Below are positions 1-18,542 of a DNA stretch of 64,000 nucleotides, piece by piece. The notes under the pieces are model-generated. The model saw nothing but the letters and a program-made list of their open reading frames with translations. It ran no database searches and had not been told where the DNA came from. A program made the position numbers and the translations under genes. The DNA is from an uncultured delta proteobacterium (GTDB lineage: Bacteria; Desulfobacterota; Binatia; UBA9968), in contig CAVSLC010000005.1 of assembly GCA_963728565.1 (NCBI GenBank), positions 96,001 through 160,000 of the forward strand, in the 5' to 3' direction. Each line of letters starts with the position of its first letter. Positions within the stretch are counted from its first letter, which is position 1.

Positions 1-675
1 TGACTGTTGCTTCAAAGCGATGCGATCGCGTAGATAGTCGAAAACCAGTTCGTTGTTTGTGCAATAGGTCACGTCACAAGCATAAGCTTGTCGGCGCGCC
101 GCAGTGCTCATCCCGGAGGTGACGATGCCGACGCTGAGTCCGAGCGCGCGATACAGAGGGCGCATCAAGTTGGCATCGCGTCGCGCAAGATAATCGTTGA
201 CAGTGACCACGTGGACGGGTAACCCCGCTAGAGCCGCGGTTGCACTGGGCAATGTCGCCGTCAATGTCTTGCCTTCTCCGGTATCCATCTCCGCGATCAT
301 GCCGTTTAGCAGAATCCAGCCGCCCATGACCTGTACATCAAAGGGTCGCATGGCGAGCACGCGGGCAGCGGTTTCCCGGATGAGCGCGAATGCTTGCGTC
401 ACTATTTCAAACTTCCAGGTGTGACCCCGCAGGTGATGGCGCAATTGCTCGGCGCAGGAGCGCAGCTCGCTGCTGTCAAGTGTCTGGAGTCGAAGGCCCT
501 GAATCGACACGGCTTCAACAAAGCGTTGACAATGGAGTGCATGAATACGGAAATAGCGGACTGCCGGGCCAAGCAGGCGCGCGCAAGCCCGGTCGAGGCG
601 ATTCTCGAAAGTGTGCCGGCGCTCCGCATATGCGCCACGCGGAAGCCCCATCGCTGGAAAACGCACGTCAGACAT
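1..675 (-). CDS. SecA-like ATPase paralog, N-terminal part (runs off window edge)
   Basis: Not in the ORF track because it has no stop in the window. Manual translation from ATG 675 gives MSDVRFPAMGLPRGAYAER...AFALIRETAARVLAMRPFDVQVMGGWILLNGMIAEMDTGEGKTLTATL...VHVVTVNDYLARRDA...YACDVTYCTNNELVFDYLRD, which are SecA NBD1 motifs. The start overlaps the stop of the upstream M50-HlyD gene. Confidence 0.9.
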   Translation of the reverse strand, partial: MSDVRFPAMGLPRGAYAERRHTFENRLDRACARLLGPAVRYFRIHALHCQRFVEAVSIQGLRLQTLDSSELRSCAEQLRHHLRGHTWKFEIVTQAFALIRETAARVLAMRPFDVQVMGGWILLNGMIAEMDTGEGKTLTATLPSATAALAGLPVHVVTVNDYLARRDANLMRPLYRALGLSVGIVTSGMSTAARRQAYACDVTYCTNNELVFDYLRDRIALKQQS

Positions 676-2812
676 GGAACCTCGCAAGAAAAAGCTGACG
701 CAACTGGCGATGCCAGCGGCTCGCTATAGGCTCCCAGCCATGGTCGAAGCGCACATGTACTCGTCCGCCGAACGACTGAATGCTGGCGCTTGCTGGAAGC
801 GCCAGGTCGAACTGAAAAGTTTTTTCGACAGTCCTCAATCCATCCTTGTCGAGCGGATCGACCGCCATCCTGCCGCCGCCCTGATTGCCCAATGCGCTCG
901 TCGGCAATTTTTCGCTGGCGGCAGGAACCTCGCGTTGTACCGTGGTCGTAAAGATCTCGTGAGGACGACCGATCAATCGCAGCTCGATGCGCTTGGTTTG
1001 ATGGCGCACCAGCTCGACATCGGCTTCGGGAACCACCACACGAGCGGTAAGCGCAGAGGTATCGAGTACGTATCCAAGCGTCGCGCCCTGATTGATAAAA
1101 CGCCCGGGCAGCTTTGCGGCATCAGGAATTTCAAAAATGCCGTCAGTACGGCTCCGAATCAAAAGATCGTTTACTCGTTCAGTGGCACGAGCGAGTCGTT
1201 GCTCGACGTGGACGATCTCGTCTCGCACAATCTGCGCTTGGCGGATGTCAATCAGGAGGAGCGCGCGATAGCGGGTATCCAGTTCGTCGAGCCGGGCTTG
1301 AAGCACCCTGACTCGGGCGGTGAGCTGCGGGTCGTAACACTCAATAAGAATATCGCCGCTTCGAACTGGCGAACCGGCGCGTGCGACAATGCGCTTGACG
1401 AACCCGTCGGTTGCCGCGCGCAGACGCGCCTGTTCGGGGAGCCAGATCACGCCTTCGGCGCCGGTGCGGAGGGGTAGCGGCAGCCAAAGGATCGCGGTCG
1501 ACAGAGCAACCGTCGCCAGCAAGCTTGTAGCTAGAGCTCGGCGGCGAACGATGCGAATGCCCGGGTCGGTGCATAAGTAGACTAAAGCTTTGACCAGCGG
1601 TCCGAGTATCCAGAGGACGATACCCGCCAGTGCCAACAAAACACCCACGAAGAAAAACTTGCCGGCAATAAAGAGCGTAATCGCCGCGAGGGCGAAAAGC
1701 CGATACAGAAACGCGGCGATGGGATACACCGTCAGCCAGACTCGTTCGGCGAGCTCTGCGGTTTGCGCTTGTGCGTCCTGACGGCCGAACACATAGCGCT
1801 CGCAGAGATACACCAGATAACGATGCGAGCGGGCACGCAGGTTCGGTATTTCCAGGTAGTCGGAAAGCATGTAGTACCCGTCATAGCGCAGCAGAGGGTT
1901 GGCATTGAAGAGGATCGTGGATATACCGGCAAGGAATAGGACGTTATATGCTGCCGTTCGGATCGCACCCGCTTCGATGTTCAACCAAAGAAACAGCGCG
2001 CATGATGCGATAAACAGTTCCACCATCATCCCCGCGGCGCCAACTACAATACGCTGCCACTTGGACGGAAAGGCAGAGGCGGACGAAGCATCAACATAGG
2101 GTATGGGTTGGAAGGCGATCAGCAGCACTCCCATCTCATGGACTTCCCCCCCATAGGCTCTTGTCGCCAAGCCGTGGCCGAACTCATGGAGAATCTTGAT
2201 CAGCGGAAATAGCAGCCACAAAACTGCGATATTCTGAGGCGTGAGAATCCGATCGGCGACCGTCAGGGTCAACTCCGACCAGTGGATTGCCGCTTGGCTT
2301 GCCGCCGTTCCGACCACAGCAAGCCATAGGATCAGAGCGCCGCGACATAGCAGTGGCCGTACCAGCGGCAGCAATGGCGTCATGATCCGTTCTGGATCGA
2401 AGAGCGGAAATTTCGTCGAAAGTGGATTCAGGAACCGGCTCTGTCGCTCCGTGCGGCACTCCCGTTCCTGACGCAGGAGCAGTTCCGCAAGATCCGCAGG
2501 GACGTCGCACTGCATCAGCTCTCCAGTGTGCAGCTGAGCCAAAAGTTGCACAACATCATTCTGTGTCGGCGCCTGGTCGCCGAGGTTTGCTTCCGCGGCT
2601 TGATACATTTCCTGCACTGTCAGGCTGCCGTTCATCAGGCCTAGGAAAGCGTACGCAGCCGAGGAAACGCGGTGTTGGCGGTATCTCGTATGATCCTGGA
2701 GCACGTACCAGCGTTTTCCTCGATACTGATGGCGCCGCACTTCCACGTGGCTGCGCAGGCGCGGCCGGAGAGGAGCAATGCGGTACCAATACGGATGGGA
2801 TAACTGCGGCAT
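668..2812 (-). CDS. Site-2 protease (M50) / HlyD-type membrane-fusion adaptor fusion with N-terminal PqqD-like domain
   Basis: HEFGH zinc motif and NANPLLRYDG (NxxPxxxxDG) within multiple TM segments. C-terminal lipoyl-like/coiled-coil/beta-barrel adaptor region. The N-terminal ~100 aa (WYVLQD...AYAFLGLMNGSLTVQEMY...VVQLLAQL) resemble a PqqD/winged-helix domain. Confidence 0.85.
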   Translation of the reverse strand: MPQLSHPYWYRIAPLRPRLRSHVEVRRHQYRGKRWYVLQDHTRYRQHRVSSAAYAFLGLMNGSLTVQEMYQAAEANLGDQAPTQNDVVQLLAQLHTGELMQCDVPADLAELLLRQERECRTERQSRFLNPLSTKFPLFDPERIMTPLLPLVRPLLCRGALILWLAVVGTAASQAAIHWSELTLTVADRILTPQNIAVLWLLFPLIKILHEFGHGLATRAYGGEVHEMGVLLIAFQPIPYVDASSASAFPSKWQRIVVGAAGMMVELFIASCALFLWLNIEAGAIRTAAYNVLFLAGISTILFNANPLLRYDGYYMLSDYLEIPNLRARSHRYLVYLCERYVFGRQDAQAQTAELAERVWLTVYPIAAFLYRLFALAAITLFIAGKFFFVGVLLALAGIVLWILGPLVKALVYLCTDPGIRIVRRRALATSLLATVALSTAILWLPLPLRTGAEGVIWLPEQARLRAATDGFVKRIVARAGSPVRSGDILIECYDPQLTARVRVLQARLDELDTRYRALLLIDIRQAQIVRDEIVHVEQRLARATERVNDLLIRSRTDGIFEIPDAAKLPGRFINQGATLGYVLDTSALTARVVVPEADVELVRHQTKRIELRLIGRPHEIFTTTVQREVPAASEKLPTSALGNQGGGRMAVDPLDKDGLRTVEKTFQFDLALPASASIQSFGGRVHVRFDHGWEPIASRWHRQLRQLFLARFHV

Positions 2813-2824
2813 AGAAGAATCAGG

Positions 2825-4684
2825 CTACGGCGCCCAGGACCAAGCAAAGAGACGCAGCCAATCCAAAGCGCGATGGGTCCAGATCCAAATCAAACGACGA
2901 CGGCCGATCTCAATCTTAGCGACTCCTTCCATACCGGGCCGTAACTGTGGCAGAGCTTTTTCCAGTGCAGCCTCTACCCGGAAATAATTGCGTCCTTCGC
3001 TTGCCGCCGATACCGGTGTGATTTTCTGCACTCGGAAAGGCAAAGGCCTGGTTGGAAATGCAGCCAACGCGAGATCTCCGCGCTGTCCGACCACGACTTC
3101 CGCGGCGTCGCGTTCATCGACCTGCAGGACGACGCGGTAGGTGTTCAGCGGCGCGACTTCATACAAAATCTGGCCGCGCTCAGTCGGCGCGCCCATGGAT
3201 TGGCTCAGGTCGCCGCTGATCACGACGCCGTCGATTGGAGCGAGAAGGTGAGCGCGCGAGATTTGGTCTTCGATTAGGGCGAGCTCTGCCTCGGCTTGGG
3301 CGACCTGCGCCGCAGCGATCTTCACCTGGGACGCATTCTGCTGCGCCAGTGCGACGTTGTACTGCTTGCCGTACTGCTCTTTTTGGCTAAGCCATTTGAG
3401 CTGTTCGAGATTGAGATCGCGAGTATCCAGGGTCGCGAGAATTTCCCCGGCTTGCACCGTATCACCGGGGCGCGCTCTTGCGGTCGCAATGTAGCCATTG
3501 AAAGGCGCGACCGCGACCCGCTGGCTCTGTGCCTCGATCAGCATCTTGGTGGAAACGCGATATTGACCATTGGCGAAGATGAAAAACAGGATTACTGCGG
3601 CGGCCACCGCACTGCCGAACTTTGCTGCGGCATGGTCTGGTCCGACGACAGCGTTCCATCGCTCTCTTATTGCGTCCACGCCGCGGATTCTGAGCGGGCG
3701 TTCATCGCGCTTTTTCATTTCTAAAATCGGTCCGACGAGCGCTGCAATCGTTTCGCACATTTCGACGGTAGCGCCTTCCAAGGGACGATCGGCAAGCCGC
3801 TCCAAAGTAAGCACGCCGTAGATTTCGCCCTCGCGACCCAACGGCACAGAGCAGATTGCGCTGCTGCCGTGTCGTTGTGCGAGTTCCTGATGATGTTGAG
3901 CGATTGAACATAGTCTGTCTGAACTGGGCGGATACAGGATCGGTGTCTCCTGATCACAAGCTTCCTCCATAGCGGCTTCTATGGCGCGACTCAGGTTTGT
4001 GCGTTTGCCGAAGCGCGCATTGTGGGAAATCGCTTGCAGATTGATCCGGTCTTCGTCGCGAAAGCCCAGACTGACGCGCTCGCAAAACAGCCGTGTTGCC
4101 AGATCCGCTACCAACGCGGTGGCGGCCCGATGAAAGCTCTTCTCTTCGACGACAACCGCAAGTGCGTGGAGAACACCCTGTAAGCGCTCCTTCTGACGCT
4201 CGCTTTCGAGATATCTCTGGCGCTCCAGCATGACTTCCAGCCAGGCTGCGCCCCAGGAAAGCTGCTGGAGCGCGGTCTGGAGTGCGGCGGACGAACGCGG
4301 CGTGAGTCTAAGAACGACAACACCGAAGAGCTGCGGGCCGATCAAGATCGGATATGCGAGCTCATGGAATTCCTGAATGGCGCCGCCCGGACTACTGCGG
4401 ACTTTACGTTGAATGATCAGCGGCGACCGTTCTCGGATGGTCTGTTCGGCGGAAGCATTTAGTTCATCGGAGACTTTGTCGCCCGGCGGCCAACAGCCCT
4501 TGATCTTATAGGGGCCTTCATCGGGAGCGCCGATCAGCACAGATGCTGCGCTCACGCCGCCAATCAGCTGGCATTGATGCACAATCCAGGCTGCACAAAA
4601 ACCGTCCTCCGTGACCGCTCCGGGGACTCCCGTCCAGAGGGAATCTTGGCTGTTATTCGCTAACGCAGCATGGGCAGAACTCAT
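2825..4684 (-). CDS. GAF domain-containing HlyD-family periplasmic adaptor
   Basis: Two GAF-like regions (ELAYPILIGPQLFGVVVL; AICSVPLGREGEIYGVLTLER), one TM helix, then the adaptor signature VAPFNGYI...RPGDTVQAGEILATLD...LLAPIDGVV...LRPGMEG. ATG 4684 preferred over the 4864 start in the ORF track. Confidence 0.85.
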   Translation of the reverse strand: MSSAHAALANNSQDSLWTGVPGAVTEDGFCAAWIVHQCQLIGGVSAASVLIGAPDEGPYKIKGCWPPGDKVSDELNASAEQTIRERSPLIIQRKVRSSPGGAIQEFHELAYPILIGPQLFGVVVLRLTPRSSAALQTALQQLSWGAAWLEVMLERQRYLESERQKERLQGVLHALAVVVEEKSFHRAATALVADLATRLFCERVSLGFRDEDRINLQAISHNARFGKRTNLSRAIEAAMEEACDQETPILYPPSSDRLCSIAQHHQELAQRHGSSAICSVPLGREGEIYGVLTLERLADRPLEGATVEMCETIAALVGPILEMKKRDERPLRIRGVDAIRERWNAVVGPDHAAAKFGSAVAAAVILFFIFANGQYRVSTKMLIEAQSQRVAVAPFNGYIATARARPGDTVQAGEILATLDTRDLNLEQLKWLSQKEQYGKQYNVALAQQNASQVKIAAAQVAQAEAELALIEDQISRAHLLAPIDGVVISGDLSQSMGAPTERGQILYEVAPLNTYRVVLQVDERDAAEVVVGQRGDLALAAFPTRPLPFRVQKITPVSAASEGRNYFRVEAALEKALPQLRPGMEGVAKIEIGRRRLIWIWTHRALDWLRLFAWSWAP

Positions 4685-4702
4685 GATCGTCCGGCCACAG
4701 AC

Positions 4703-4718
4703 GGCAAGAACTATGCCG
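4703..4718 (-). promoter_or_regulatory. Putative sigma54 (-24/-12) promoter of the adaptor/M50/SecA operon
   Basis: Minus strand reads CGGCATAGTTCTTGCC: GG-N10-GC with TTGC, about 20 nt upstream of ATG 4684. Confidence 0.5.
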
Positions 4719-4903
4719 ACATTCCAGCAAGCGCGCTCTCTTGGTTGAGTCAGGGTTGTCGTCGCAGAGCGCGCCTCACAAGGAATCCAAGGGTGAAGAA
4801 ATCCCGAAAGACGAATCATGGAGCCCGGCAAGGTGAGTGAGTTTATGGCGAGACATGACCTCAAATCTGCCAGTTGCTGTGCGGAAACGTACGAAAAATG
4901 AGT

Positions 4904-5971
4904 TCAGGGAGACTCGGCGGCCGGTGCAAGACCAATCTCGATCAGAAAAACAGGACCATGATCGTGATTGCTCACCGTCACCGTGCCGTCGTGAGCCTCG
5001 ATGATCTGCCTGGAGATCGCCAGGCTCAAACCGGAGCCTTGATGGTGATGCGCGATATCCTGCACGGATAGCAGGTTGAAAATTTCTTCCTGCTGCTCCA
5101 TCGGAATCTTCTCTCCGTCGTTGGCAACTTCGATCCGCAGTCGGTCTCCAAGTCTATGAGCGCGTACCTCGACGGCACTGCCTTCGCGAGCGAATTTCAC
5201 GGCATTGTCCAACAGCGCGCTGATCGCAATCGTGAACAGCTTTAGATCTGCATCAATGCGCAAAGTTTCGTCGCCGGAAAACCGCAACGTGCAATGTTGT
5301 TCATTTTGCTGAAATGTTTGCCGATACTCTGAAAAGAATAAGCTGAGCGGGGCATTGGCCTTTTCGATCCGAACCTCTCCTAACTTTAGATCGCTTAACA
5401 AGAGTGTCTTTTCGCACGATTGCAAGAGTTTTTCGCCGCATCTCTGAATCTCATCGACAAATGTTTTTTCCTCGCCGACGAGGTGTTCGCTTTCACGCAG
5501 CAACCGAATGTAGCCAAAGATCGCGGTGAGCGGAGTGCGCGTTTCGTGACTGAGCAGATTGATGAGATTGGTCTTGATTTTGTTGATTTCCTCGGCATTT
5601 TTCAGCCGAAGAAAGACCTTTACCTTGGCGAGGAGTTCGCTCGCTTCGAACGGTTTCATGATGTAGTCATCCGCCCCAATTTCGTATCCGAAAAGTCTAT
5701 CTTCAAGCAACATTTTCGAGGACACGAGAATGATCTTCAGATTCGAAAACACGTTATTGCTCCGAATCCTGCGACACACTTCATATCCATCGATATCGGG
5801 CATCATGATATCCAGCAAGATTAGATCGACTTTCGGGCAAGTATTTAAATAAGCGAGCGCTTCTTCGCCCGAGGAGACGAGATGGATGGTATGTTCGTTC
5901 TCCAGGATCAGCCTGTAAATTTCCAAAATAATTGGGTCGTCGTCGACCGCCAGGATGGTTGCCGTCATCAT
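4904..5971 (-). CDS. Response-regulator/histidine kinase hybrid (REC-HisKA-HATPase)
   Basis: ILAVDDD...LILLDIMMP...DYIMKPF receiver; H-box SHETRTPL; N-box LLDNAVKF; GSGLSLAI. Confidence 0.9.
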   Translation of the reverse strand: MMTATILAVDDDPIILEIYRLILENEHTIHLVSSGEEALAYLNTCPKVDLILLDIMMPDIDGYEVCRRIRSNNVFSNLKIILVSSKMLLEDRLFGYEIGADDYIMKPFEASELLAKVKVFLRLKNAEEINKIKTNLINLLSHETRTPLTAIFGYIRLLRESEHLVGEEKTFVDEIQRCGEKLLQSCEKTLLLSDLKLGEVRIEKANAPLSLFFSEYRQTFQQNEQHCTLRFSGDETLRIDADLKLFTIAISALLDNAVKFAREGSAVEVRAHRLGDRLRIEVANDGEKIPMEQQEEIFNLLSVQDIAHHHQGSGLSLAISRQIIEAHDGTVTVSNHDHGPVFLIEIGLAPAAESP

Positions 5972-6057
5972 ATATTGCTCATGCGCATCCGCCGTATCTT
6001 AACACGAGATCAGAAGCAGGACTGGAAATTTCAATTTGCTGTCCCTCGCAATCCTGT

Positions 6058-6073
6058 TGGCTCCGGCATTGCG
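6058..6073 (+). promoter_or_regulatory. Putative sigma54 promoter of the adhesin operon
   Basis: TGGCTCCGGCATTGCG: GG-N10-GC with TTGC, about 40 nt upstream of ATG 6114. Confidence 0.6.
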
Positions 6074-6113
6074 TAAACCGCACTTCCTTTAGAAGAGGGA
6101 ACGACAAAACCGT

Positions 6114-9100
6114 ATGAAAGCGCCTTTAAGCGCCATCAGGCATCGTGATCTGGACGGCTGTTCAGTTAAACTACTCCAGAGAGCGGCCAAATTCGTCCAT
6201 CGGCTGGCTTTAAAACGGATCAGCAAGCACCGAGCAGCCGGTGCCATCCGCAGTCCAAGTGAGTTCATCATTGAACCTTTGGAAGAACGGCTGTTGATGT
6301 CGGCGGACCCCATTTCCGGCGGCATCGTGACTGTTGAGCCGGTTTCATTGCCAAGAAGCGATCCGGCGGCGATCAGCGCGCCGCTTTTGGACGAGTTGCA
6401 TACTACGATTTCGGTCAGCCAGGGAGAAGCGTCATCAATCGGCAGCGCATCACCGGCGAGGCAAGCGCGCAGCGAAGTCGTGTTCCTCGATTCGAGGATT
6501 GAATCTCGCGAGGATTTCGTTCGGGATCTCCTCGCCAACTCGAGTGCAATTCGTCAGATTGATGTTTTCGTGCTTGACGCGGAGCGCGACGGCATCGAGC
6601 AGGTAAGCGAAGCTCTGGCAGGTTACACGAACTTGGATGCTGTGCATTTTATTTCCCATGGCTCTGGTGGTGTGGTGCAATTGGGTGACACACGGCTCGA
6701 CCACGATTCGACACAGATTCGGGCGCAGGCCCTTGCTGCCTGGAGCGCGGCGTTGAGCATCGACGCTGACCTGCTCTTTTACGGCTGCGATGTAGCGAGC
6801 TCTCCATCAGGAATTGCGCTAGTTGAAAGATTGAGTCTCCTTACCGGTAGCGATATCGCCGCGAGCATTAATCGGACTGGTTTCGGCGAGTCCGGGGCCG
6901 ACTGGATACTTGAGCATCGGGTGGGGGAAATAGAAGCCGCAATCGCTGTGAGTCCATCGCTGCAAGCGGCTTGGGCAGGGATTCTGGCGACGCCGACCGC
7001 CTCCAACCTGAACACCGCGGAGAAGTACACCCTGAATACGCCGCTGAACCTCGCCGACATCGTGGTCAATGATGCGGATGGCGATGCCGTGACGGTGACC
7101 CTGACCGTGTCGAACACTGCGGCGGGGCGCCTCTCGACGGGCGCTTCGGGCGCCGTCACCTCCACCTACAATACGATCACCGGAGTCTGGTCGGCAAGCG
7201 GCGCGGTTGACGACGTCAATGTCCTGCTGGCCAATGTGAGGTATACCCCGAGCCTTCTTTTCCTCGGCAACTTTACGATCGCCACTCGTGTCGATGACGG
7301 GGGTTCTCCGCCGCTCAGCGGCGTTAAGAATATGTCCGCGGCACTTATCAACCTGCCGCCAACCGCAACCAATCTGAGCGCACCCGAAACGTTTACCGAG
7401 GATTCGGCGATCAATTTAACAAATATCGTCATCAGCGATCCTGACAGCCCCAATGTAACGGCGCGGTTGACCTTGTCGAATCCTGCGGCGGGAAGTCTCA
7501 ATACAGGCAGCTCGGGAGCGGTGACTTCAACTTTCAACCCGGTCACGGGCATGTGGTTGGCGAGTGGCGCGATCGCCGACGTCAACGCGCTGCTGGCGGG
7601 GCTCATCTTTACGCCGGCCGCCGATTACGATGATAACTTCACGATCAGTACCCGGGTGGACGACGGCGTCGCTGCCGCGATCACCGGAACAAAGAGTATG
7701 ACGGCAGTTCCCATCAACGACGCACCGACGGCCTCGAACCTGAATGCCGCGGAAACCTACACAGAAAATCAGTCGTTGAACCTGGCGGACATTGTGATCG
7801 TCGATGTGGATGGTCCGAGCGTCACTGCGATCCTGACTCTTTCCGATACCTCGGCCGGCAGTCTCAATACCGCAACTTCCGGCTCGGTGACCTCGACCTA
7901 TACTGCCGGAACCGGCGTGTGGTCGGCAAGCGGCGCTCTCAACGACGTCAATGCGCTTCTTGCGGGGCTGACCTTCACACCGACCGCTCTTTACAGCAGC
8001 AGTTTCACTATCGCCACAAGCGTCGATGATGGCGTGGCGCCGGCGATCACCGGCACGAAGAGCATAACGGCAAATATCATTAATGTGGGGCCGCTGGCGT
8101 CCAACTTGAGCGAGCCGGAAACGTACACAGAGGATATTGCACTCGACTTGATCGACATCGTCGCGAGCGATCTCGACAGTCCCAACGTGACCGTCACGCT
8201 TACCCTCTCCGACCCTGCGGCGGGCACCCTCGCTACAGCGACATCGGGACAAGTGACGTCGACATTCGAATCGCTGACCGGCACATGGTCGGCAAGCGGC
8301 GCGATTGCCGATGTGAACACGCTGCTGGCAGGCCTGACCTTTACTCCGGCAGCGGACTACAACAGCAACTTTACTATCGCCACCAGCGTCGATGACGGCG
8401 TGGCGCCGCCCGTCACTGGGCTTAAAATCCTGACCGCGGTCGCCGTCAACGATGCACCGGTGGCGAGCAATCTCAGTGAACCGCAGACTTACACGGAAGA
8501 TACGGCGCTCGACCTGACCGATATTGTGGTGAGCGACGTGGACAGCGCGAATGTGACGGTGACTTTGACGCTGTCGGATCCGGCCGCCGGCAGTCTCAAT
8601 ACCGCCACGGCGGGAGCCGTGACCTCGACCTACAACGCAGGGACGGGGGCGTGGAGCGCGAGTGGCGCGGTGGCGGATGTGAACACGCTGCTGGCAGGGC
8701 TGACGTTTAGTCCGGCGCTGAACTACAACAGCGACTTCACGATTGCCACCAGCGTCGATGACGGCGTGGCGCCGCCCGTCACTGGAGTCAAAACCATGAT
8801 CGCCGCGGCCGTCAACGATGCGCCTGTTAACAACCTACCACCGCCGCAAGCGACACCGCAGGATACTTCGTTGAGCTTCGGTGCGGGCGGCGGAAATGCC
8901 ATCTCCGTCACCGACGTCGATGCGGGAACGGATCAAATCGAGGTGACGCTGACGGCCGGCAACGGAACGCTTACGCTGCATTGGCCGTCCGGGACCGCCG
9001 CGCCCGCGGGTAGCGAATTCCGGATCAACACGATCACGACCGACCGTCAGGCAATGCTCAATGGCGAGTTCTATGGTGCCACCACCTCGAGTTCGGTGGG

Positions 9101-12100
9101 CCCCGAGCAGTTGCCACGGATCCGAACGGCAATTTTGTTGTGGTCTGGTCGAGCAAAAATCAAGACGGTGACGGCTGGGGGATTTACGCGCAAAGATACA
9201 ACGCCGCCGGCGCGGCACAGGGTGGCGAATTCCGCATCAATACCACTGTCGTGAAAGATCAGCTGCATGCGTCGGTGGCCATGGACGATGCCGGCAACTT
9301 CGTCGTTGTTTGGGCGAGCAAGGACCAAGACGGCGACAATTGGGGAGTCTACGCCCAACGCTACGATTCGAGCGGTGTTGCACAGGGCGGCGAGTTTCAA
9401 GTCAACACAAACATCACCAAGGAGCAACTCGGGCCCAGCATCGCCATGTCCGCCGACGGCGACTTTGTGATCGTATGGTCGAGCAATGATCAGGACGGAG
9501 ACGACTGGGGCGTTTACGCCAAGCGCTATTATGCGGCCGGAATGGTGCAAGGCGGTGAGTTCCGCGTCAATACCACCACCACCAAAGATCAGACCGCCTC
9601 CGCGGTGGCCATGGATGCCGAAGGCAATTTCTCGTCACTTGGTCCAGCAAAGACCAGGACGGAGATAACTGGGGAGTTTACGCTAAGCGCTACAATGCCG
9701 CCGGACTGGCGCAGGGCGGTGAGTTCCGCGTCAACACGTATACCGGCAAAGAGCAAGAGTTTCCCTCGGTCGCAATGGACGCCGCCGGCAATTTCGTCGT
9801 CACCTGGTCGAGCAAAGATCAGGACGGCAACAACTGGGGCATTTATGCCAAGCGCTATGACGCCGGCGGCGTCGCCCAGGGAGCCGAGTTCCTGGTCAAT
9901 CAGACGACAGCAATGAGCAGCTGCACTCGTCGGTCTCGATGGACGCCGACGGCGATTTTGTCATCACCTGGTCGAGCAAGGATCAGGACGGCAATGGTTG
10001 GGGAGTCTACGCACGCCAATACACGGCAGACGGCACGGCCAAATCAGGTGAGGTGCTGATCAATACGACGACTGCGGGGGACCAGCATCTGTCTTCTGTC
10101 GCGATGGATGCCAGCGGCGACTTCGTGGTTGTCTGGACAGGCGCCGGGCCGGGCGACTCGCTGGGCGTGTTCGGACAGCGCTTCACTATCTCCAGCCCTT
10201 TGACGTTCGCCGCCGGCGATGGAACCCGCGACGCAACGATGACTTTTCGTGGAACGGCGGCGGAGGTGAATGCGGCGCTCGATGGCTTGGTCTTTACGCC
10301 GACTGCCGGTTTCAACGGCCTTGCTTCCATTACGGTCAGCACAAGCGACTTGGGGAACAGCGGCACCGGCGGTCCTCAGTCAAGCAGCGCCACCGTCAAC
10401 ATCGCTGTCGGAAATGGAAATCTCCCTCCTACCCTGAACCTCACAGGCGGTGCGGTCACTTATACCGAGAACGACCCGGCAACCGTGATCGATCCAGCTG
10501 CGACCGTGGGTGATCCCGACTCGGCAGACTTCGACGGTGGGCAGCTGAGTGTATTCCTGAGCGCGGGCGGCACGGACAACGACCGCCTCGGTATACGAAA
10601 CGAGGGCACGGGCGTGGGACAGATCGGCGTCTCAGGCAATATCGTCACCTATAACTTCGGCGCAGGCGCGGTGGCAATCGGCACGTTCGACGGCGGCATG
10701 GACGGTGTCACGCCTCTGGTGGTGACGTTCACCGCGAGTGCGACACCGGCAGCTGTCCAGGCGCTTGCGCGCAACATCACGTACCAGAACCTGTCCGACG
10801 ATCCGTCTACTTTGAATCGCATCGTGGAATTCACCCTGACGGACGGCGACGGCGGCACGAGCAGCGCGGCGAGTCGAAACATCAATGTAACCGCGATCAA
10901 TGACGCGCCTATGGCAACGAACCTCAGTGCCGGGGAGACTTACACAGAGGACACGGCGCTCGATCTGACCGATATCGTGGTGAGCGACGTGGACAGCGCC
11001 AATGTGACGGTGACTTTGACGCTGTCGGACTCGGCCGCCGGCAGTCTCAATACCGCCACCTCGGGAGCCGTGACCTCGACCTACAATGCCGCAACCGGCC
11101 TCTGGACAGCGAGCGGCGCGGTGGCGGACGTGAACACGCTGCTGGCAGGGCTGACGTTTAGTCCGGCGCGGACTACAACAGCGACTTCACCATTGCCACC
11201 AGCGTCGATGACGGCGTGGCGCCGGCCGTCACCGGAGTCAAAGCCATGACTGCCGTCGCCGTCAACGACGCGCCTATGGCAACGAACCTCAGTGCCGGGG
11301 AGACTTACACAGAGGACACGGCGCTCGAATCTGACCGACATTGTGGTGAGCGACGTGGACAGCGCCAATGTGACGGTGACTTTGACGCTGTCGGACTCGT
11401 CCGCCGGGAGTCTCAATACCGCCACCTCGGGAGCCGTGACCTCGACCTATAATGCCGCAACCGGCCTCTGGACAGCGAGCGGCGCGGTGGCAGATGTGAA
11501 CACGCTGCTGGCAGGGCTGACGTTTAGTCCGGCAGCGGATTACAACAGCGACTTCACGATTGCCACCAGCGTCGATGACGGCGTGGCGCCGGCCGTCACC
11601 GGAGTTAAAACCATGACCGCCATCGCCGTCAACGATGCACCGGTTCTGGTCAATAATACGCTGACCATCAACGAGGGCGGTAGCGTGACGCTTTCCGGCA
11701 CTGAGATGTCGGCGACGGATGTGGACAATGCGAGTGGGACTCTGACGTTTTCGGTATCCAACGTCACCGGCGGTCAATTTGAGCTTGTTGCCAGCCCGGG
11801 AGCAGCAATTACCACCTTCACGCAGGCCCAAGTAACGGCTGGCGCAGTTCGTTTCATCCACGACGGCGGAGAGGCTGCGCCGAGCTACAATCTGACCGTG
11901 TCTGACGGCTCTCTCACCGATGGTCCCGCCGCTGCCAGCATCACTTTCGCCAATATCAACGACGCGCCTATGGCAACGAACCTCAGTGCCGGGGAGACTT
12001 ACACAGAGGACACGGCGCTCGATCTGACCGATATCGTGGTGAGCGACGTGGACAGCGCCAATGTGACGGTGACTTTGACGCTGTCGGATCCAGCCGCCGG

Positions 12101-14113
12101 CAGTCTCAATACCGCCACCTCGGGAGCCGTGACCTCGACCTACAATGCCGCAACCGGCCTCTGGACAGCGAGCGGCGCGGTGGCGGATGTGAACACGCTG
12201 CTGGCAGGGCTGACGTTTACGTCCGGCAGCGGACTACAACAGCGACTTCACGATTGCCACCAGCGTCGATGACGGCGTGGCGCCGGCCGTCACCGGAGTC
12301 AAAGCCATGACTGCCGTCGCCGTCAACGACGCACCTATGGCAACGAACCTCAGTGCCGGGGAGACTTACACAGAGGATACAGCGCTGGATCTGACCGACA
12401 TTGTGGTGAGCGATGTGGACAGCGCCAATGTGACGGTGACTTTGACGCTGTCGGACTCGTCCGCCGGGCAGTCTCAATACCGCCACCTCGGGGGCCGTGA
12501 CCTCGACCTACAATGCCGCAACCGGCCTCTGGACAGCGAGCGGCGCGGTGGCAGATGTGAACACGCTGCTGGCAGGGCTGACGTTTAGTCCGGCAGCGGA
12601 TTACAACAGCGACTTCACCATTGCCACCAGCGTCGATGACGGCGTGGCGCCGGCCGTCACCGGAGTTAAAACCATGACCGCCATCGCCGTCAACGATGCA
12701 CCGGTTCTGGTCAATAATACGCTGACCATCAACGAGGGCGGTAGCGTGACGCTTTCCGGCACTGAGATGTCGGCGACGGATGTGGACAATGCGAGTGGGA
12801 CTCTGACGTTTTCGGTATCCAACGTCACCGGCGGTCAATTTGAGCTTGTTGCCAGCCCGGGAGCAGCAATTACCACCTTCACGCAGGCCCAAGTAACGGC
12901 TGGCGCAGTTCGTTTCATCCACGACGGCGGAGAGGCTGCGCCGAGCTACAATCTGACCGTGTCTGACGGCTCTCTCACCGATGGTCCCGCCGCTGCCAGC
13001 ATCACTTTCGCCAATATCAACGACGCACCTATTCTAATCAACAATCACTTGGTCATCCGGCAAGGCTCGTCGGCCGTGCTCAGCAGCGCAAATCTTTCCG
13101 CTTCGGATGTAGATAACCCTCCTGCCGGTTTGACCTTCGACGTGTCCAATATAAACGGCGGCCGTTTCGAACGAACTTCAGGCCCGGGTGTTGCCATTAC
13201 GAGCTTTAGCCAGGCAGAGGTAACCGGCGGCGGCATTCGCTTCGTACATACCGGCGGTAACACAGCGCCGAGCTACGATGTGACTGTGTCTGATGGCAGT
13301 CTTTCCGTCGGCCCGCTTCCAGCGGCAGTGGCTTTTGAGCCTCTGGATGACAGCGGCGAGGATCTCACGCCTACACAGACCACGCCGCTGGCACCGATAG
13401 CTCCGACGCTGCCCATACCGGAGATAACTCCACCGCTCGTGTTGCCTCCGAATTCCACCGGTGGCCCTGTCGGAAAGACTGACGTTGACACCAATCCTTC
13501 GAACGCGTCGCTCGGGGTGGATACGTTGGCTGAGGTGCAGCCCTATCAGAGTCCCGATAGCACGCAAGAAGCGAGTACGACAAGCAGGCCGCTGCCGGCC
13601 CGGACCACCGAAAAGGGGGCTGAGATTCGGGACGGCCTCTCTCTGAAAACAGATTCGTCTGTGACAGCGACCGATGTGACTGTCGATGAAACTGAGACAG
13701 ACACGGTTCAGCGCGGCGAACTGGGTTCAATCGTCGATGGGCAAAGTTTTGTGCAAGAGTTGAATAGGCTGCGAGAGGAACTTGCCGAGGAAATCGATTC
13801 GGAGAGACTTGTTGTCGGCTCCTCGGTTACCGTCGCGACGGGCTTCTCGATCGGTTATGTGCTCTGGCTGCTGCGCGGCGAAGTGTTGCTGACCAGCCTG
13901 TTGGCGTCCTTGCCCGCCTGGCGCCTCATCGATCCGCTGCCGGTGCTCTCGTTTGTAAGCAAGCGTTCCGAGGACGATGACGACGATGACTCCATTGAAG
14001 CCGCGGTCCAGAAAGGTGCAGCTATTGCTCCGGCCGAAGCCGACTCTGCGCGCGTGCCACAGCAAGGAACCCGATCGATCCGCTGGCGCATGGTGGCGGA
14101 GCCGGCTGAATAG
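6114..14113 (+). CDS. Giant repeat adhesin (~2660 aa if joined): LEPRxLL-type motif, DUF4347-like domain, Ig/cadherin-like repeats, 7-repeat propeller-like insert, C-terminal hydrophobic tail; split by about 7 single-base indels
   Basis: ORFs 6114-9254, 9140-9916, 9775-10059, 9939-11249, 11216-11452, 11292-12272, 12277-12588 and 12497-14113 continue the same repeats across frames. Motifs: [11 protein letters not shown]; EVVFLDSR...[12 protein letters not shown]...[10 protein letters not shown]; NDAP repeats; GYVLWLLRG...[13 protein letters not shown]. Confidence 0.85.
6990..8813 (+). repeat. Five diverged ~122-aa (366 bp) Ig/cadherin-like coding repeats
   Basis: Recurring NL(S/N)xxETYTED...[32 protein letters not shown]...VDDG units; starts at ~7716, 8082 and 8448 are 366 bp apart. 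Confidence 0.9.
9007..10185 (+). repeat. Seven ~55-aa repeats (GGEFRVNT...SVAMDAxGNFVVxWSSxDQDGxxWGVYAxRY), probable beta-propeller
   Basis: 165-bp period (9221 to 9386 to 9551); seven copies counted across frames. Confidence 0.8.
10899..13018 (+). repeat. Near-identical nucleotide tandem duplication, (A-A-B)x2, unit ~1.06 kb
   Basis: A units start at ~10899, 11263, 11958 and 12325. B units at 11631 and 12692 are essentially identical in DNA (offset 1061). Confidence 0.9.
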
Positions 14114-14121
14114 AAAGCGGA

Positions 14122-16668
14122 GTGCAGTTCGTGAAACGTCTGAGCGCAAAATGCCACATTGCTTTGGGGCTGACGTTTTTGCTGGTCAGCCTAGTGCTCG
14201 CTTGTTTCTATCTGGGGCTCATACCCGATCGCCTCGGCGCGATCCGCGCCGGTCGAGCGGCTCTCGCTGAGTCGATTGCTGCCAATAGCTCGGTGTTCAT
14301 CAGCCAATCGGATCTACGGCGGTTAGAGATGACGCTTCGATTTGTCGTCGCACGCAATCCCGAGATTCTCTCGGCTGCGATGCGGCGCGCCGACGGCGAA
14401 ATCGTTGTGAATATCGGCGACCACGGTCGCCACTGGCGTAATTTGCACGATGAACATTCGACTGACTCGCAGCTGCGAGTGCCGATAATGGCCAGTAAGC
14501 AGAAGTGGGGAAGCCTGGAACTTCGTTTGCAGCCTCTGACCCCGACCGCTTGGTACGGCTTCGTTTTCGACCCGAGATTCAAGTTGCCCCTATTTCTCGC
14601 GCTTTGCGCTTTTCCCCTATTTTACTTTTACCTGGGCAAAATGCTCCGCGAACTCAACCCGTCGCAGGCAATTCCAGCCCGGGTGCGCTCCGCGCTCGAT
14701 ACGATGGTGGAAGGTCTCCTGGTGATCGACGCCAACGGCCGTATCGTATTGGCGAACCAGGCTTTCGCTTCCATAGTCGGCAAGATACCCGATGAACTCA
14801 TCGGCCTGAGCGCGTCCGAGTTCTCATGGTCAAACAGCGACGGCACGGCGCTCGAGCAGGATTCAGCACCGTGGCTCAAAGCGCTTCGTGATCAGTGCCT
14901 GCAAAAGAATTTGATGGTCGCGCTCAGCGACTATCAGCAGAAGCGCCGCGCGTTCATCGTGAACTGCTCGCCGATCTTTGTCGGCAAAGGGCGGACCGGC
15001 GGTGTCTTAATCAGCTTGGACGATGTTACGGAACTGGAAGAGAAAGAGATCGAACTCCGCCAGTCCAAGGAAGCCGCCGAGATTGCCAACCGCGCGAAAA
15101 GCGAATTCCTCGCGAATATGAGCCATGAGATCAGGACGCCGATGAATGCCATTCTCGGCTTTACCGAGGTGCTCAGGCGCGGCTACGGCCAAAACGAGCA
15201 AACCTGGCAGAAGCACCTGCACACGATTCACTCCAGCGGCAAACATTTGCTCGAGTTGATCAATGACATCCTGGATCTGTCCAAAATTGAAGCAGGCGGC
15301 TTGCGGGTCGAGAAGATCCCGTGCAAACCGCACGAGGTCGTCCGAGACGTGGTTCAGGTCTTGTCGGTCAAAGCGCGGGAAAAATCCGTTTCGTTGGATA
15401 TCGAGTTCGCCAGTGCCGTACCGGAAACAATTCTGAGCGATCCTTCGCGCCTGCGTCAGATTCTCACGAATCTGGCCGGCAACTCCATCAAGTTTACCGA
15501 AGAGGGTGGGGTCAAGATTGTGCTTGGTCTGTCGCGGAGCGATAGTGACGCGCAACTGACTCTGGCGGTGATCGACACTGGAATCGGCATAGCCGAAGAC
15601 AAGCAGCAAGCGATCTTCGATCCTTTCGTCCAGGCGGACACGTCGGTTACCCGGAAATTCGGCGGCACCGGACTCGGACTCGCGATCAGTCGCCGGTTCG
15701 CGCAGGCTCTCGGCGGTGACATAACGCTGCGCAGCGAACCCGGCAAGGGGAGCGTCTTTACTGTCAGGATCGACACAGGACCGCTTGATGGCGTTCGAAT
15801 GCTCCAGCCCGCCGAAGCGTTGGCGGCGAGCGAACAGATTTCTACCGAGACTCGCCCTCGCTGGGATTTTCCTCCCGCCCGAGTGCTCGTGGTCGACGAT
15901 GGCGATGAAAACCGGGAGCTGGTCACGGTGGTTCTGCAGGAGATCGGGCTCAAAGTCGAGGGCGCTGAAAACGGCCAAGTGGCGGTTGCAAAGGCCCTCC
16001 AGGAGGAATTTGCGGTCATCTTTATGGACGTGCAGATGCCGGTGATGGATGGTTTGACGGCCACCCGTCAACTGCGCCTACGTGGGCTCAAGACCCCAAT
16101 TATCGCGTTGACCGCGCACGCGATGAAGGGCTTCGAAGAAGAGATTCTGGCCGTGGGATTTTCCGGCTATCTCACGAAGCCGATCGATATAGATGCCTTG
16201 ATCCACAAACTGGCCGAGTTGCTGCGAGCGCGCAGCATCGAAGCCACGCCTCCCGAGACTCAAGTAGCCGCAGGTCCAATTTCTGCGGCAATCGGCTCGG
16301 CCCGGCAAGCGGACGAGCCGCCGCTGGTCTCGCGTCTGGCAGCAAATAATCCGCGTTTCGTTCCAATCATCGAAAAATTTGCGCGACGTCTTACCGATCA
16401 GCTCGATGCCATGGCGAAGGCTTGGGAGGAAAAAAACTATGACGAGCTGGCGAGCCTCGGGCACTGGCTCAAAGGAGCCGGCGGCACCGTCGGATTCGAT
16501 GCTTTCACCGAGCCTGCCTACGTTCTTGAGCAATCGGCGAAGGGGCGCAAAGAGGAAGAGACCGAGGCGGCACTCGCGGAACTTCGCCGACTCGCCGGTC
16601 GCGTCAGGGTTGGCAGCGAAGCCCTGTCGCCCTCGATTGCTGTCGTTGCCGGCTCGGCCAACGGCTAA
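14122..16668 (+). CDS. Membrane hybrid sensor kinase (2 TM, PAS, HisKA, HATPase, REC, Hpt)
   Basis: [14 protein letters not shown]; LAGNSIKFT; DTGIGI; FGGTGLGL; VIFMDVQMP; Hpt motif [13 protein letters not shown]. Starts 8 nt after the adhesin stop. Confidence 0.95.
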
Positions 16669-16688
16669 CAACTGCAAGGAGCAGCTTT

Positions 16689-18542
16689 ATGAATGCCCAA
16701 CAAATTCAAATTGATTTTGCCGTAGGCGAACAGGAGGCATTGACCCGTACCGACACACTGGGGAACGCGGTGTCAAATAGCTCAGACGTCGACTACGGCG
16801 ATCTTTATGAGCCATTGCGCGACGCCACCGTGATGATGGTCGATGATGAGCCGACGACAATCGACGTCTTGCAGGCATTTCTTGAGAACGAGGGATACAC
16901 GCGATTCGTTACGATCAGCGACTCTAGTCGTGCGATGGATCTCGTTGCGAGCGAAAACCCCGACGTCCTGCTCCTCGATTTGCACATGCCGCAAGTGACC
17001 GGATTCGACATTCTGACGCTGCTCCGCCGCGATGCCCGCTTTCGGCACATGCCGGTGATTGTTCTGACGTCCGCCTCCGACCCCGCCACCAAGTTGAAGG
17101 CACTGAAGTTAGGCGCCAGTGATTTTCTGGCCAAGCCTGTGGATCCAAGTGAGTTGGCGCTTCGGTTGCGCAACACCCTTGCCGCTAAGGCCTATCAAGA
17201 TCGGCTTACATTCTATGATTCACTTACCGGTTTGCCTAATCGGCGCCTGTTCTGGGATCGACTCCTCTGGTCGCTGCGATGCGCCATTCGTGAAGGAACG
17301 ATGGGTGCGGTGCTGCACATCGACCTGGATCATTTCAAAAAGATCAATGACAGCTTGGGGCATGAGATCGGCGATGGCTTACTTGTAGAAGTTGCCCGAC
17401 GGCTGCAGTCGTGCATACCGGAGTTAAACGTCACTAGTGATAAGGGCGCCGCAGATTTGCAGCCGTTCCTTTCCCGTGTTGGCGGTGACGAATTCAACCT
17501 GTTGCTGCCCGAGATGAGGCGGGTGGAGGAAGTTGTCCGCACTGCCGGCGCGCTCCTCGCAGCCATGAAAGAACCTTTTTTCATCGATCAGCACGAAGTG
17601 TTCATCACTGGGACGATCGGGGTAGCCGTTTTCCCGAATGATGGAGAGTCCGGCGACGCACTCCTCCAGCACGCAGGCGTGGCGCTGAACCAGGCGAAGC
17701 AGCGGGGACGAAACACCTATGAGTTCTATTCGCCGAAAATGAACGCGCGGGCGCTCGAGCGCCTGAAACTTGAAAATGACCTGCGCCGTGCGTTGGACCG
17801 TGACGAATTGCTGCCGTTTTATCAACCGAAGGTGAATTTGCAAACCGGAAGAGTCGTCGGAGCGGAAGTGCTGCTGCGCTGGAACCACCCCTTCCGAGGA
17901 TTCATATCTCCTGCGGAATTCATCCCGTTAGCGGAGGAGAACGGCATGATTATCGACTTCGGCGCCTGGATACTCAATGCCGCGTGTATGCAAAACAAGG
18001 CATGGCAAACTGCGGGTTTGGAAAATATTCGCGTCGCAGTTAACGTCTCTCCACAGCAATTCCGCGACAGTAGCTTCTTGGCAAGACTGCGCGCGACGCT
18101 GGAGTCAAGCAAGCTTGCTCCGGAATTTCTCACTCTTGAACTCACCGAAAATACTATAATGGGAAATGCCCAACGCAACTTGGACCTTCTGAATGAGATT
18201 CGCGCGATGGGCGTCAAGCTCTCGGTCGATGACTTCGGAACGGGATACTCTTCGCTCAGTTACCTGAAAAGGCTGCCTCTTGATGAGCTCAAAATCGACC
18301 GTTCATTTATCATCGATATCCGGTCAGACAAAGATGATGCGCCGATTGTCACAGCGATCATCGCCATGGCACACAGCTTGAATTTACGTGTCGTGATGGA
18401 GGGAATCGAAACTGAACATCAGCTGGTGTTCTCGCGCGATCGCGGCTGTGATGAATATCAAGGATTTTTTTTCAGTAAGCCTGTACCTAGCCAAGAATTT
18501 GAGACTCTTCTTGAGAGATCGCTGACCCATGCCTCACAATAG
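16689..18542 (+). CDS. REC-GGDEF-EAL diguanylate cyclase/phosphodiesterase
   Basis: Receiver (LLLDLHMP); DSLTGLPNR; GGDEF intact; EVLLRW; DDFGTGYSSLSYL; EGIET. No RxxD I-site. Confidence 0.95.
   Translation: MNAQQIQIDFAVGEQEALTRTDTLGNAVSNSSDVDYGDLYEPLRDATVMMVDDEPTTIDVLQAFLENEGYTRFVTISDSSRAMDLVASENPDVLLLDLHMPQVTGFDILTLLRRDARFRHMPVIVLTSASDPATKLKALKLGASDFLAKPVDPSELALRLRNTLAAKAYQDRLTFYDSLTGLPNRRLFWDRLLWSLRCAIREGTMGAVLHIDLDHFKKINDSLGHEIGDGLLVEVARRLQSCIPELNVTSDKGAADLQPFLSRVGGDEFNLLLPEMRRVEEVVRTAGALLAAMKEPFFIDQHEVFITGTIGVAVFPNDGESGDALLQHAGVALNQAKQRGRNTYEFYSPKMNARALERLKLENDLRRALDRDELLPFYQPKVNLQTGRVVGAEVLLRWNHPFRGFISPAEFIPLAEENGMIIDFGAWILNAACMQNKAWQTAGLENIRVAVNVSPQQFRDSSFLARLRATLESSKLAPEFLTLELTENTIMGNAQRNLDLLNEIRAMGVKLSVDDFGTGYSSLSYLKRLPLDELKIDRSFIIDIRSDKDDAPIVTAIIAMAHSLNLRVVMEGIETEHQLVFSRDRGCDEYQGFFFSKPVPSQEFETLLERSLTHASQ

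Follow-up and report, generated by a model that had tools for sequence, protein, structure and literature searches.

How do bacteria export LEPR-XLL proteins, which are among the largest bacterial proteins (reading frames of up to 19,427 codons were found here) and whose export is usually assumed to proceed by type I secretion? The question is raised by a locus at the left end of a 64,000-nucleotide (nt) stretch of DNA (the window) from an uncultured delta proteobacterium (contig CAVSLC010000005.1, here C5; window, C5:96001-160000), where genes for a SecA-like ATPase, an M50 peptidase fused to an HlyD-type adaptor, and a GAF-HlyD adaptor are encoded divergently from a gene for an LEPR-XLL protein. 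A first-pass annotation of this DNA, made from the letters alone, had proposed that a dedicated SecA-type ATPase powers export through an adaptor/M50 membrane complex that also processes the cargo. Here, we report a comparative analysis of the locus and put at roughly 60% the probability that the operon is the core of a dedicated machine that recognizes, exports, and probably trims proteins with an LEPR-XLL leader, without an ATP-binding cassette (ABC) transporter.

Three minus-strand genes form a translationally coupled operon. These encode the GAF-HlyD adaptor (2825-4864; GAF, 45.4 bits; HlyD_D23, 64.4 bits; HlyD_3, 64.3 bits), a 714-amino-acid (aa) fusion of a PqqD-like domain, Peptidase_M50, and HlyD (M50-HlyD, 668-2812; Pfam HlyD_3, HlyD_D23, Peptidase_M50, and a weak PqqD match), and the SecA-like protein, whose N-terminal 229 codons (1-687; SecA_DEAD, 231.9 bits) run past the left window edge and whose remainder extends leftward to C5:94683 (~660 aa overall; P-loop_SecA, 185.5 bits; SecA_PP_bind, 58.7 bits). 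GAF-HlyD and M50-HlyD are separated by 12 nt, and M50-HlyD and the SecA-like gene overlap by 8 to 20 nt, depending on the start chosen; domains and spacing thus confirm the leftward coupled operon of the first-pass annotation. That annotation had pointed to the left of the window as the place to look for TolC, further adaptors, or an ABC ATPase. The 16 kb examined there hold the rest of the SecA-like gene and, 12 nt past it on the minus strand, a third adaptor (HlyD3, 289 aa; HlyD_D23, 73.4 bits), which brings the HlyD-domain proteins of the locus to three. Beyond HlyD3 lie a 185-aa open reading frame (ORF), smpB, DUF502, panC, panB, a deoxynucleoside kinase, and a GH3 enzyme. No ABC transporter, resistance-nodulation-division (RND) pump, or TolC gene was found in the window's locus or in these 16 kb, so these 16 kb to the left of the window supply neither a cognate ABC transporter nor a TolC gene. 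The 185-aa ORF is ruled out as a fifth component, having no Pfam match and no relative in the 80 loci described below.

Species-representative genomes were scanned with the M50-HlyD protein, which gave 199 confirmed relatives, and the best 80 loci were kept; counts of gene order include only loci with enough flank. The 80 loci span Beta-, Gamma-, Alpha-, and Deltaproteobacteria-type lineages, Planctomycetota, Gemmatimonadota, Methylomirabilota, Omnitrophota, Acidobacteriota, and Myxococcota. GAF-HlyD lies directly upstream of M50-HlyD in 64 of 65 loci (the sole miss, L026, does carry the gene, which was dropped by the counting filter), the SecA-like gene follows M50-HlyD immediately in 67 of 68 (at the miss, L010, an LEPR ORF comes next and then the contig end), and HlyD3 is present in 54 of 61. 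By comparison of gene order, these four genes are shown to form a conserved unit, hereafter the cassette. No ABC transporter cluster occurs among the recurring neighbors of the 80 loci, and the comparison supports reading the cassette as a unit without an ABC pump. TolC-family genes are found in 11 of the 80 loci (one scores 317.8 bits on TIGR01844; cutoff, 225); the genome studied here, a draft (80.55% complete, 5.84% contamination), has none at the locus and six OEP (TolC-family) genes elsewhere, the nearest ~173 kb away.

What the cassette serves is suggested by its neighbors. A giant-type neighbor was defined as an ORF that falls in either of two giant BLAST clusters, carries an N-terminal LEPR pattern, or has at least 1,700 codons. 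Such a neighbor is present in 26 of the 40 loci flanked by 5 kb or more in both directions (36/80 of all loci), and at all ten loci where its start is visible, a basic stretch is followed by (F/L)-E-x-L-E-P-R-x-L-(L/Y)-S-A-D. L56, E57, R59, L61, S63, and A64 are invariant in an alignment of 10 leaders that includes the window's protein. Where the start of the upstream giant lay beyond the fetched flank, whole genomes were searched, and the best genome-wide LEPR match was the start of the frame adjoining the cassette in five of five genomes (3,196, 6,668, 7,943, 8,711, and 15,050 codons). The giant neighbor is missing in 14 of the 40 loci; 11 of these belong to one betaproteobacterial group with housekeeping flanks, and all five genomes tested from that group encode one to five LEPR proteins elsewhere.

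Phylogenetic profiles point the same way (LEPR, E ≤ 0.01; M50-HlyD, E ≤ 1e-40 in the window's phylum and E ≤ 1e-30 in Pseudomonadota). Among 401 genomes of the window's phylum, M50-HlyD was found in 23 and LEPR in 13 (both, 10; LEPR only, 3; M50-HlyD only, 13; neither, 375); among 351 genomes of Pseudomonadota, the corresponding counts were 90 and 53 (both, 51; LEPR only, 2; M50-HlyD only, 39; neither, 259). Fisher tests gave 1e-11 and 5e-34, respectively, figures that overstate the association, because the relatedness of the genomes makes them non-independent. None of 14 well-known control genomes had an LEPR match at E ≤ 0.01. At least 41 of the 86 LEPR matches in Pseudomonadota share a contig with a listed M50-HlyD match, and in at least 38 of these 41 pairs the gap between giant frame and M50-HlyD is 12 kb or less, typically 1 to 3 kb; these counts are lower bounds, with at most three candidates per genome scored and 24 matches not listed. 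Over the two samples, the usual distance between M50-HlyD relative and giant gene is 1 to 5 kb. Distant M50-HlyD subfamilies (25 to 30% identity) also adjoin LEPR genes, for example in genomes G300 and G171 of the window's phylum. Neighborhood and phylogenetic profile together show, at the level of genome comparison, that the cassette is specifically tied to LEPR-XLL proteins.

The first-pass annotation had suggested a test of co-occurrence of M50-HlyD and the SecA paralog with LEPRxLL/DUF4347 proteins. The LEPR part stood, with M50-HlyD in 51 of 53 and 10 of 13 LEPR-positive genomes, and the DUF4347 part did not. DUF4347 is present in only three of the five cassette genomes, against five of five for the LEPR motif; the shared cargo feature is therefore the leader, and DUF4347 as a required feature is rejected. 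Some genomes (for example, G432 and G416) carry three M50-HlyD cassettes each, every one beside its own LEPR giant (frames of 11,649 to 15,434 codons), which suggests one machine per cargo in these genomes. The upstream giants of six loci (L013, L014, L046, L050, L063, and L067) share a C-terminal module of ~170 residues (...AGYGWF.D.TP.DD.EF ... DLLS...HELGHV.G), which resembles a zinc-metallopeptidase motif and might serve self-processing.

The predicted cargo of the window is an LEPR-XLL/DUF4347/cadherin-repeat protein of ~2,660 codons (6114-14113, plus strand; NF012209 and PF14252). Its leader motif, with a basic stretch ahead, lies at 6264-6317 (residues 51-68; NF012209, 24.1 bits; cutoff, 17) and reads LEERLL, in which E replaces the P of LEPR with the match still above the cutoff, and its DUF4347 domain lies at 6477-6986 (residues 122-291; PF14252, 159.8 bits). 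In a genome-wide search, this protein was the genome's only LEPR match and its only DUF4347 match. As the first-pass annotation had said, this adhesin has no repeats-in-toxin (RTX) nonapeptides (no GGxGxD in any piece of it, no HemolysinCabind match in Pfam) and no obvious hydrophobic N-terminal Sec signal, its leader being basic. Its C terminus shows no RTX motif or other recognizable secretion signal. A hydrophobic, transmembrane-like stretch is present there (13800-14113; maximum KD19, 1.65), ~100 residues from the end and followed by six Asp, which could be a membrane anchor.

The M50 fusion offers candidate sites for both recognition and cleavage of such a leader. Its subregions are an N-terminal domain (~2498-2812), the M50 membrane domain (~1478-2395), and a periplasmic HlyD domain (~671-1477). 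HExxH occurs at residue 209 and NxxPxxxxDG at residue 303, and H209, E210, H213, N303, N305, P306, and D311 do not vary among 29 aligned M50-HlyD orthologues, by which the M50 active site is intact; five strongly hydrophobic, transmembrane-like segments lie in residues 150 to 444. The nearest NCBIfam model, that of the daptide M50 leader protease (NF041824, daptide_HExxH), is matched at 170.2 bits, below its cutoff of 300. The first 130 residues were modeled as three strands followed by three helices (predicted local distance difference test [pLDDT], 88.8). In a VIA comparison, the model matched TbiB1 with its leader peptide (5v1v_A; Z, 9.6; root mean square deviation, 2.8; 85 aligned of 88), lasso B1 (6jx3_B; Z, 9.4), PqqD (5sxy; Z, 9.2; 89 aligned of 94), and the leader-binding domains of cyanobactin heterocyclases, MccB, and sactisynthases (Z, 7.4 to 8.6); the top rows were domains that share this general fold (GdmN C-terminal domain; Z, 11.3), and Foldseek on the same model gave no match at E ≤ 0.001. 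On this predicted structure, the N terminus has the PqqD-like fold of a recognition element (RRE) of ribosomally synthesized and posttranslationally modified peptides (RiPPs).

Complexes of M50-HlyD residues 1 to 430 (29-sequence alignment) with leader residues 18 to 100 (10-sequence alignment) were predicted with scores of 0.59, 0.59, and 0.58, against 0.00 for the best of three controls; the runs agree in at least 68% of contacts, with a partner pLDDT of at least 52. Of 80 solved complexes, 58 attained the mark used, as did 2 of 110 mismatched pairs, rough counts for alignments of our own; just 7 of the 80 attained it with a score of 0.60 or under, as did both passing mismatches. Complex modeling, which the first-pass annotation had proposed, sets the leader apart from the controls and lends weak support to binding. 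The other large adaptor, GAF-HlyD, probably starts at the ATG at 4684 (~619 aa) and has a cytoplasmic GAF domain, one transmembrane-like segment (residues 412 to 430), and a periplasmic membrane-fusion domain.

The motor is a shortened SecA. In an intact orthologue (L013), the only domains are SecA_DEAD, PP_bind, and P-loop_SecA. Residues 75 to 654 of this protein align to SecA/SecA2 structures at chain residues 51 to 616 of 786 (best Protein Data Bank match, a SecA2, 6sxh_A, 446.7 bits), which places its end early in the scaffold helix. By these alignments, the protein keeps nucleotide-binding domains 1 and 2 and the preprotein cross-linking domain (PPXD) and is without the wing domain, two-helix finger, and C-terminal tail, and so without the C-terminal parts that engage SecY. 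The motor motifs are present in the window's copy (Walker A [GEGKT], DEAD, TGTA, TNMAGRGTDI, and GRCGRQG). Scores fall below every NCBIfam SecA/SecA2 cutoff (for example, 634.4 against 814; SecA2 models, 555.3/1085, 479.2/930, 464.1/725, and 413.5/1100). The SecA-like gene is a single ORF of ~663 aa in most of the 80 loci, and five of five other cassette genomes encode a canonical SecA (429 to 457 bits, frames of 853 to 957 codons) alongside the short copy. In the genome studied here, the sole SecA_DEAD matches are the two halves of the cassette copy, with no canonical secA; the lack of a further match is probably due to the incompleteness of the draft.

We propose that the RRE would bind the basic-LEPRxLLSAD leader in the cytoplasm and that the PPXD-bearing SecA-like motor would feed the unfolded chain, N terminus first, into a membrane complex based on the M50 domain. 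This domain would be the membrane passage, its active site would remove the leader, and the three adaptor domains would bridge the periplasm to a TolC-family channel, whose gene is at the locus in some genomes and outside it in the present genome. The GAF domain may gate export, and the window's cargo would be the divergently encoded cadherin-repeat protein. The export and processing proposed in the first-pass annotation are thus favored by the ABC-less unit, the tie to LEPR, the intact M50 site, and the RRE fold, and its regulatory genes and DUF4347 drop out of the proposal. As a broader claim, on which we give even odds, the cassettes may represent a distinct class of double-membrane secretion, in which a wingless SecA motor and an RRE-M50-adaptor replace the ABC transporter, the leader is read in RiPP-like fashion and cut by M50, chains of up to ~19,000 residues are threaded N terminus first to a TolC-type duct, and subfamilies each have their own giant.

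Against this proposal weigh the following points. Support for all of its components is computational. There is no obvious inner-membrane channel other than the M50 domain, TolC lies within the locus in few of the loci, and in 7 of 61 no HlyD3 was found. M50-HlyD-positive genomes without an LEPR match number 39 of 90 in Pseudomonadota and 13 of 23 in the window's phylum, so the proposal has to assume other cargo, other leader variants, or gaps in the assemblies. RTX repeats occur in some neighboring giants (L067, HemolysinCabind, 125 bits; several giants of cluster c0, 4 to 18 GGxGxD). One of the five other cassette genomes (G005) has PrtD-type type I ABC genes over the cutoff, on other contigs, and another (G004) has a full-length C39-type ABC match (506.7 bits, below the cutoff). 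The motor gene and the cargo gene are both interrupted in this assembly. An earlier report on the same locus (PMC4452313) states that, of the cassette genes of Methylobacterium extorquens AM1 (META1p2399-2402), the GAF gene alone showed clear expression during exponential growth.

The RTX repeats, the ABC genes of G005 and G004, and the want of a channel other than M50 are what recommends the main rival to an export machine. S2P-type (site-2 protease) enzymes usually cleave their substrates rather than conduct them. On this account, the cassette is an accessory module that holds, unfolds, or trims the LEPR leader, comparable to a retention/release device for giant adhesins, and transport itself is left to an ABC type I secretion system (T1SS), C terminus first, or to SecYEG. 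No ABC transporter recurs beside the 80 loci, however, and no PrtD or LssB match over the cutoff was found in four of the five other genomes with cassette and giant, three of which have only generic exporters by these two models; the HlyB model was not run, and exporters below the cutoff stay possible partners. The genome studied here also has no PrtD-type ABC over the cutoff (best, 221.7 bits against 510). Three membrane-fusion domains, with TolC at 11 of 80 loci, are encoded with the motor, which is unexpected for a purely cytoplasmic helper, and the window's cargo lacks RTX motifs. We regard an accessory role as rather unlikely.

A second alternative concerns this genome only: the locus may be a decaying remnant, its motor and cargo genes pseudogenes and nothing exported. 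One frameshift near C5:95644, outside any homopolymer, divides the SecA-like gene into two ORFs (404 and 324 codons). The adhesin gene consists of at least six ORFs (6114-9254, 9140-9916, 9939-11249, 11292-12272, 12277-12588, and 12497-14113), its open frames being frame 0 at 6093-9251, frame 2 at 9014-9913, frame 0 at 9861-11246, 11250-12269, and 12273-12497, and frame 2 at 12446-14110. In-frame TGA codons split the frame 0 stretches at 11247-11249 and 12270-12272, exactly 1,023 nt apart in a region of 366-nt repeats; the two may be copies of one event in a duplicated repeat block, an assembly artifact, or read-through sites. The rpoC (1,381 codons) and rpoB (1,373 codons) frames are intact, and the assembly is therefore not generally full of indels, which favors decay.

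Against decay stand contigs from four soil metagenome runs (three studies), whose cover across the adhesin is thin. Contigs of all four runs lack one base exactly at the SecA-like break (depth with the change over total, 3.76/3.76, 13.5/13.5, 2.9/2.9, and 2/5.2); because these contigs do not carry the frameshift, the break is read as an assembly error or private mutation. In one low-depth contig (X1), a base is added after window position 9088, a change that would join adhesin frame 0 to frame 2. The adhesin breaks fall within near-identical tandem repeats of 165 nt and 366 nt, of which some units measure 164 or 367 nt and point to assembly indels, and at least part of the fragmentation is read as repeat-related assembly error. 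GAF-HlyD and M50-HlyD are intact. Decay of the locus is unlikely on this evidence.

The regulatory genes around the window's copy bear on a third explanation. Between GAF-HlyD and the adhesin lies a REC-HisKA-HATPase gene (4904-5971, minus strand; Pfam), and past the adhesin, on the plus strand, come a PAS-HisKA-HATPase-REC-Hpt hybrid histidine kinase (14122-16668) and a REC-GGDEF-EAL protein (16689-18542; GGDEF intact, an EVL variant of EAL, DDFGTG present). The first-pass annotation gave this order correctly, with an operon facing an ~8-kb LEPR adhesin followed by the last two genes, and omitted the REC-HisKA-HATPase gene. Relatives of the three adjoin the cassette in only 2 of the 80 loci (L033 and L061), so the kinases and the GGDEF-EAL protein are rejected as parts of the system, as is the cyclic di-GMP (c-di-GMP) phosphorelay that the annotation had included; they are local neighbors that may regulate this copy from outside the conserved system. 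Against the LapD model, the REC-GGDEF-EAL protein reaches 149 bits (cutoff, 1020), which gives no sign of a Lap-type system, LapG not having been searched for. GC content is 0.487 in the REC-HisKA-HATPase region (5001-6000) and ~0.58 on both sides, and the gene may have entered the divergent promoter region at a later time.

M50/S2P proteases have a classical role in regulated proteolysis. Together with the GAF domain and the flanking two-component and c-di-GMP genes, this would fit a signaling cassette, in which GAF-sensed, SecA-like-powered, S2P-type regulated intramembrane proteolysis controls production of the giant. The regulatory neighbors are not conserved (2 of 80 loci), no sigma/anti-sigma genes occur among the recurring neighbors, and the RRE fold, the PPXD motor, and three periplasmic adaptors suit substrate handling better; signaling is very unlikely. 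That the cassette matures or exports a small RiPP-like peptide beside incidental giants, as the RRE fold and the partial match to the daptide M50 protease might suggest, is highly improbable, since no small conserved precursor or modifying enzyme recurs (the only small recurring ORF is DUF3467, in 17 of 80 loci) and the association with LEPR is strong by neighborhood and profile.

Other recurring neighbors are absent from the window's locus, which has no DUF3467, TolC, SapC, or DUF4344 gene. The DUF3467 protein (~105 to 117 aa; 80.8 bits) is encoded between the giant gene and GAF-HlyD (for example, L013:7683-8033), has the conserved core SYAN..N....REE..L.FG ... LS.R..L.P.AAKRL., and was not found in this genome. 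A SecB-like or chaperone-like fold for it cannot be upheld at a model pLDDT of 49.2. A SapC-family protein (234.5 bits; L063:7993-8895) occurs between giant and GAF-HlyD in six of the 80 loci, and a DUF4344 metallopeptidase-like protein occurs in six. The giant symbiosis proteins of Chlorochromatium are described as carrying an LEPRxLL leader and adjoining TolC and SapC, with export ascribed to type I components (10.64898/2026.03.19.712371); SapC beside the giants here is thus of the same family as that reported there.

The export machine proposed here differs from known systems in several respects. With T1SSs (HlyB-HlyD-TolC and LapBCE), it shares HlyD-type fusion proteins, TolC-family proteins in some loci, and, likely, very large repetitive surface cargo; here, in contrast, a SecA-type motor and an M50 fusion would stand in place of the ABC transporter, the shared signal is N-terminal (LEPR-XLL) rather than C-terminal, and the window's cargo has no RTX repeats. 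A review of T1SSs (PMC8277102) mentions SecA only with SecYEG/SecDF. Like the accessory SecA2 of Gram-positives and mycobacteria, the cassette has a second SecA paralogue for a few special, often large, surface proteins; unlike SecA2, this paralogue is below the SecA2 cutoffs, misses the C-terminal half, and has adaptors and M50 as partners instead of SecY2/Asp or SecYEG, genes of which none was seen among the recurring neighbors, where no family-directed search was made. Giant Omnitrophota proteins are described as carrying SecA_DEAD and PPXD in cis, with no scaffold or wing, near type II-like genes and as a proposed means of their own export (10.1101/2023.11.21.568195); there, SecA is fused into the giant, whereas the cassette, with its four genes, encodes it as a protein of its own (660 aa). 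RRE-dependent RiPP systems (PqqD, lasso B1, and the daptide M50 protease) offer the same N-terminal RRE fold joined to a leader-removing protease type (M50), but the presumed substrate here has thousands of residues, and the protease forms one chain with a periplasmic adaptor and has a SecA-like motor coupled to it.

The cassette itself is already in print as a computational observation, a kind known from genes alone. Kamneva, Poudel, and Ward (2015; PLoS One, PMC4452313) described in silico a locus of a secondary SecA_DEAD protein, GAF/HlyD, Peptidase_M50/HlyD, HlyD/Biotin_lipoyl, and sometimes OEP. Their main text remarks on the missing ABC transporter, proposes that SecA_DEAD is the ATPase and that the M50 protein may be the pore, and calls the broader biological role "completely unknown." The two descriptions agree in a SecA_DEAD protein without the C-terminal SecA domains, in the partner genes, and in the phyla (Planctomycetes, Proteobacteria, and others); they differ in that the paper names no cargo, and LEPR, giant, cargo, PqqD, and DUF4347 have no occurrence in its main text. 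The link to LEPR-XLL, the RRE fold, and the accessory DUF3467/SapC genes are additions of the present analysis. The cargo assignment, RRE domain, and leader model were not found in print (PMC4452313 being judged from its main text), and no follow-up to that paper's key phrase was found, a self-citation listing aside. The claim of the first-pass annotation that no characterized system has this architecture holds for experiments and fails for in silico description (PMC4452313). Overall, its observation is confirmed with corrections, its interpretation is partly supported, and its c-di-GMP phosphorelay is local context.

For the LEPR-XLL family, the analysis assigns a specific and widespread candidate machine, a Sec-type motor with TolC-type adaptors and a RiPP-derived recognition module. 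Methylobacterium extorquens AM1 is genetically tractable. The cassette has been reported in this organism (PMC4452313), and the exit of a megadalton protein from the cell becomes directly testable. If true, the proposal would add a new energizing principle for tripartite envelope systems.

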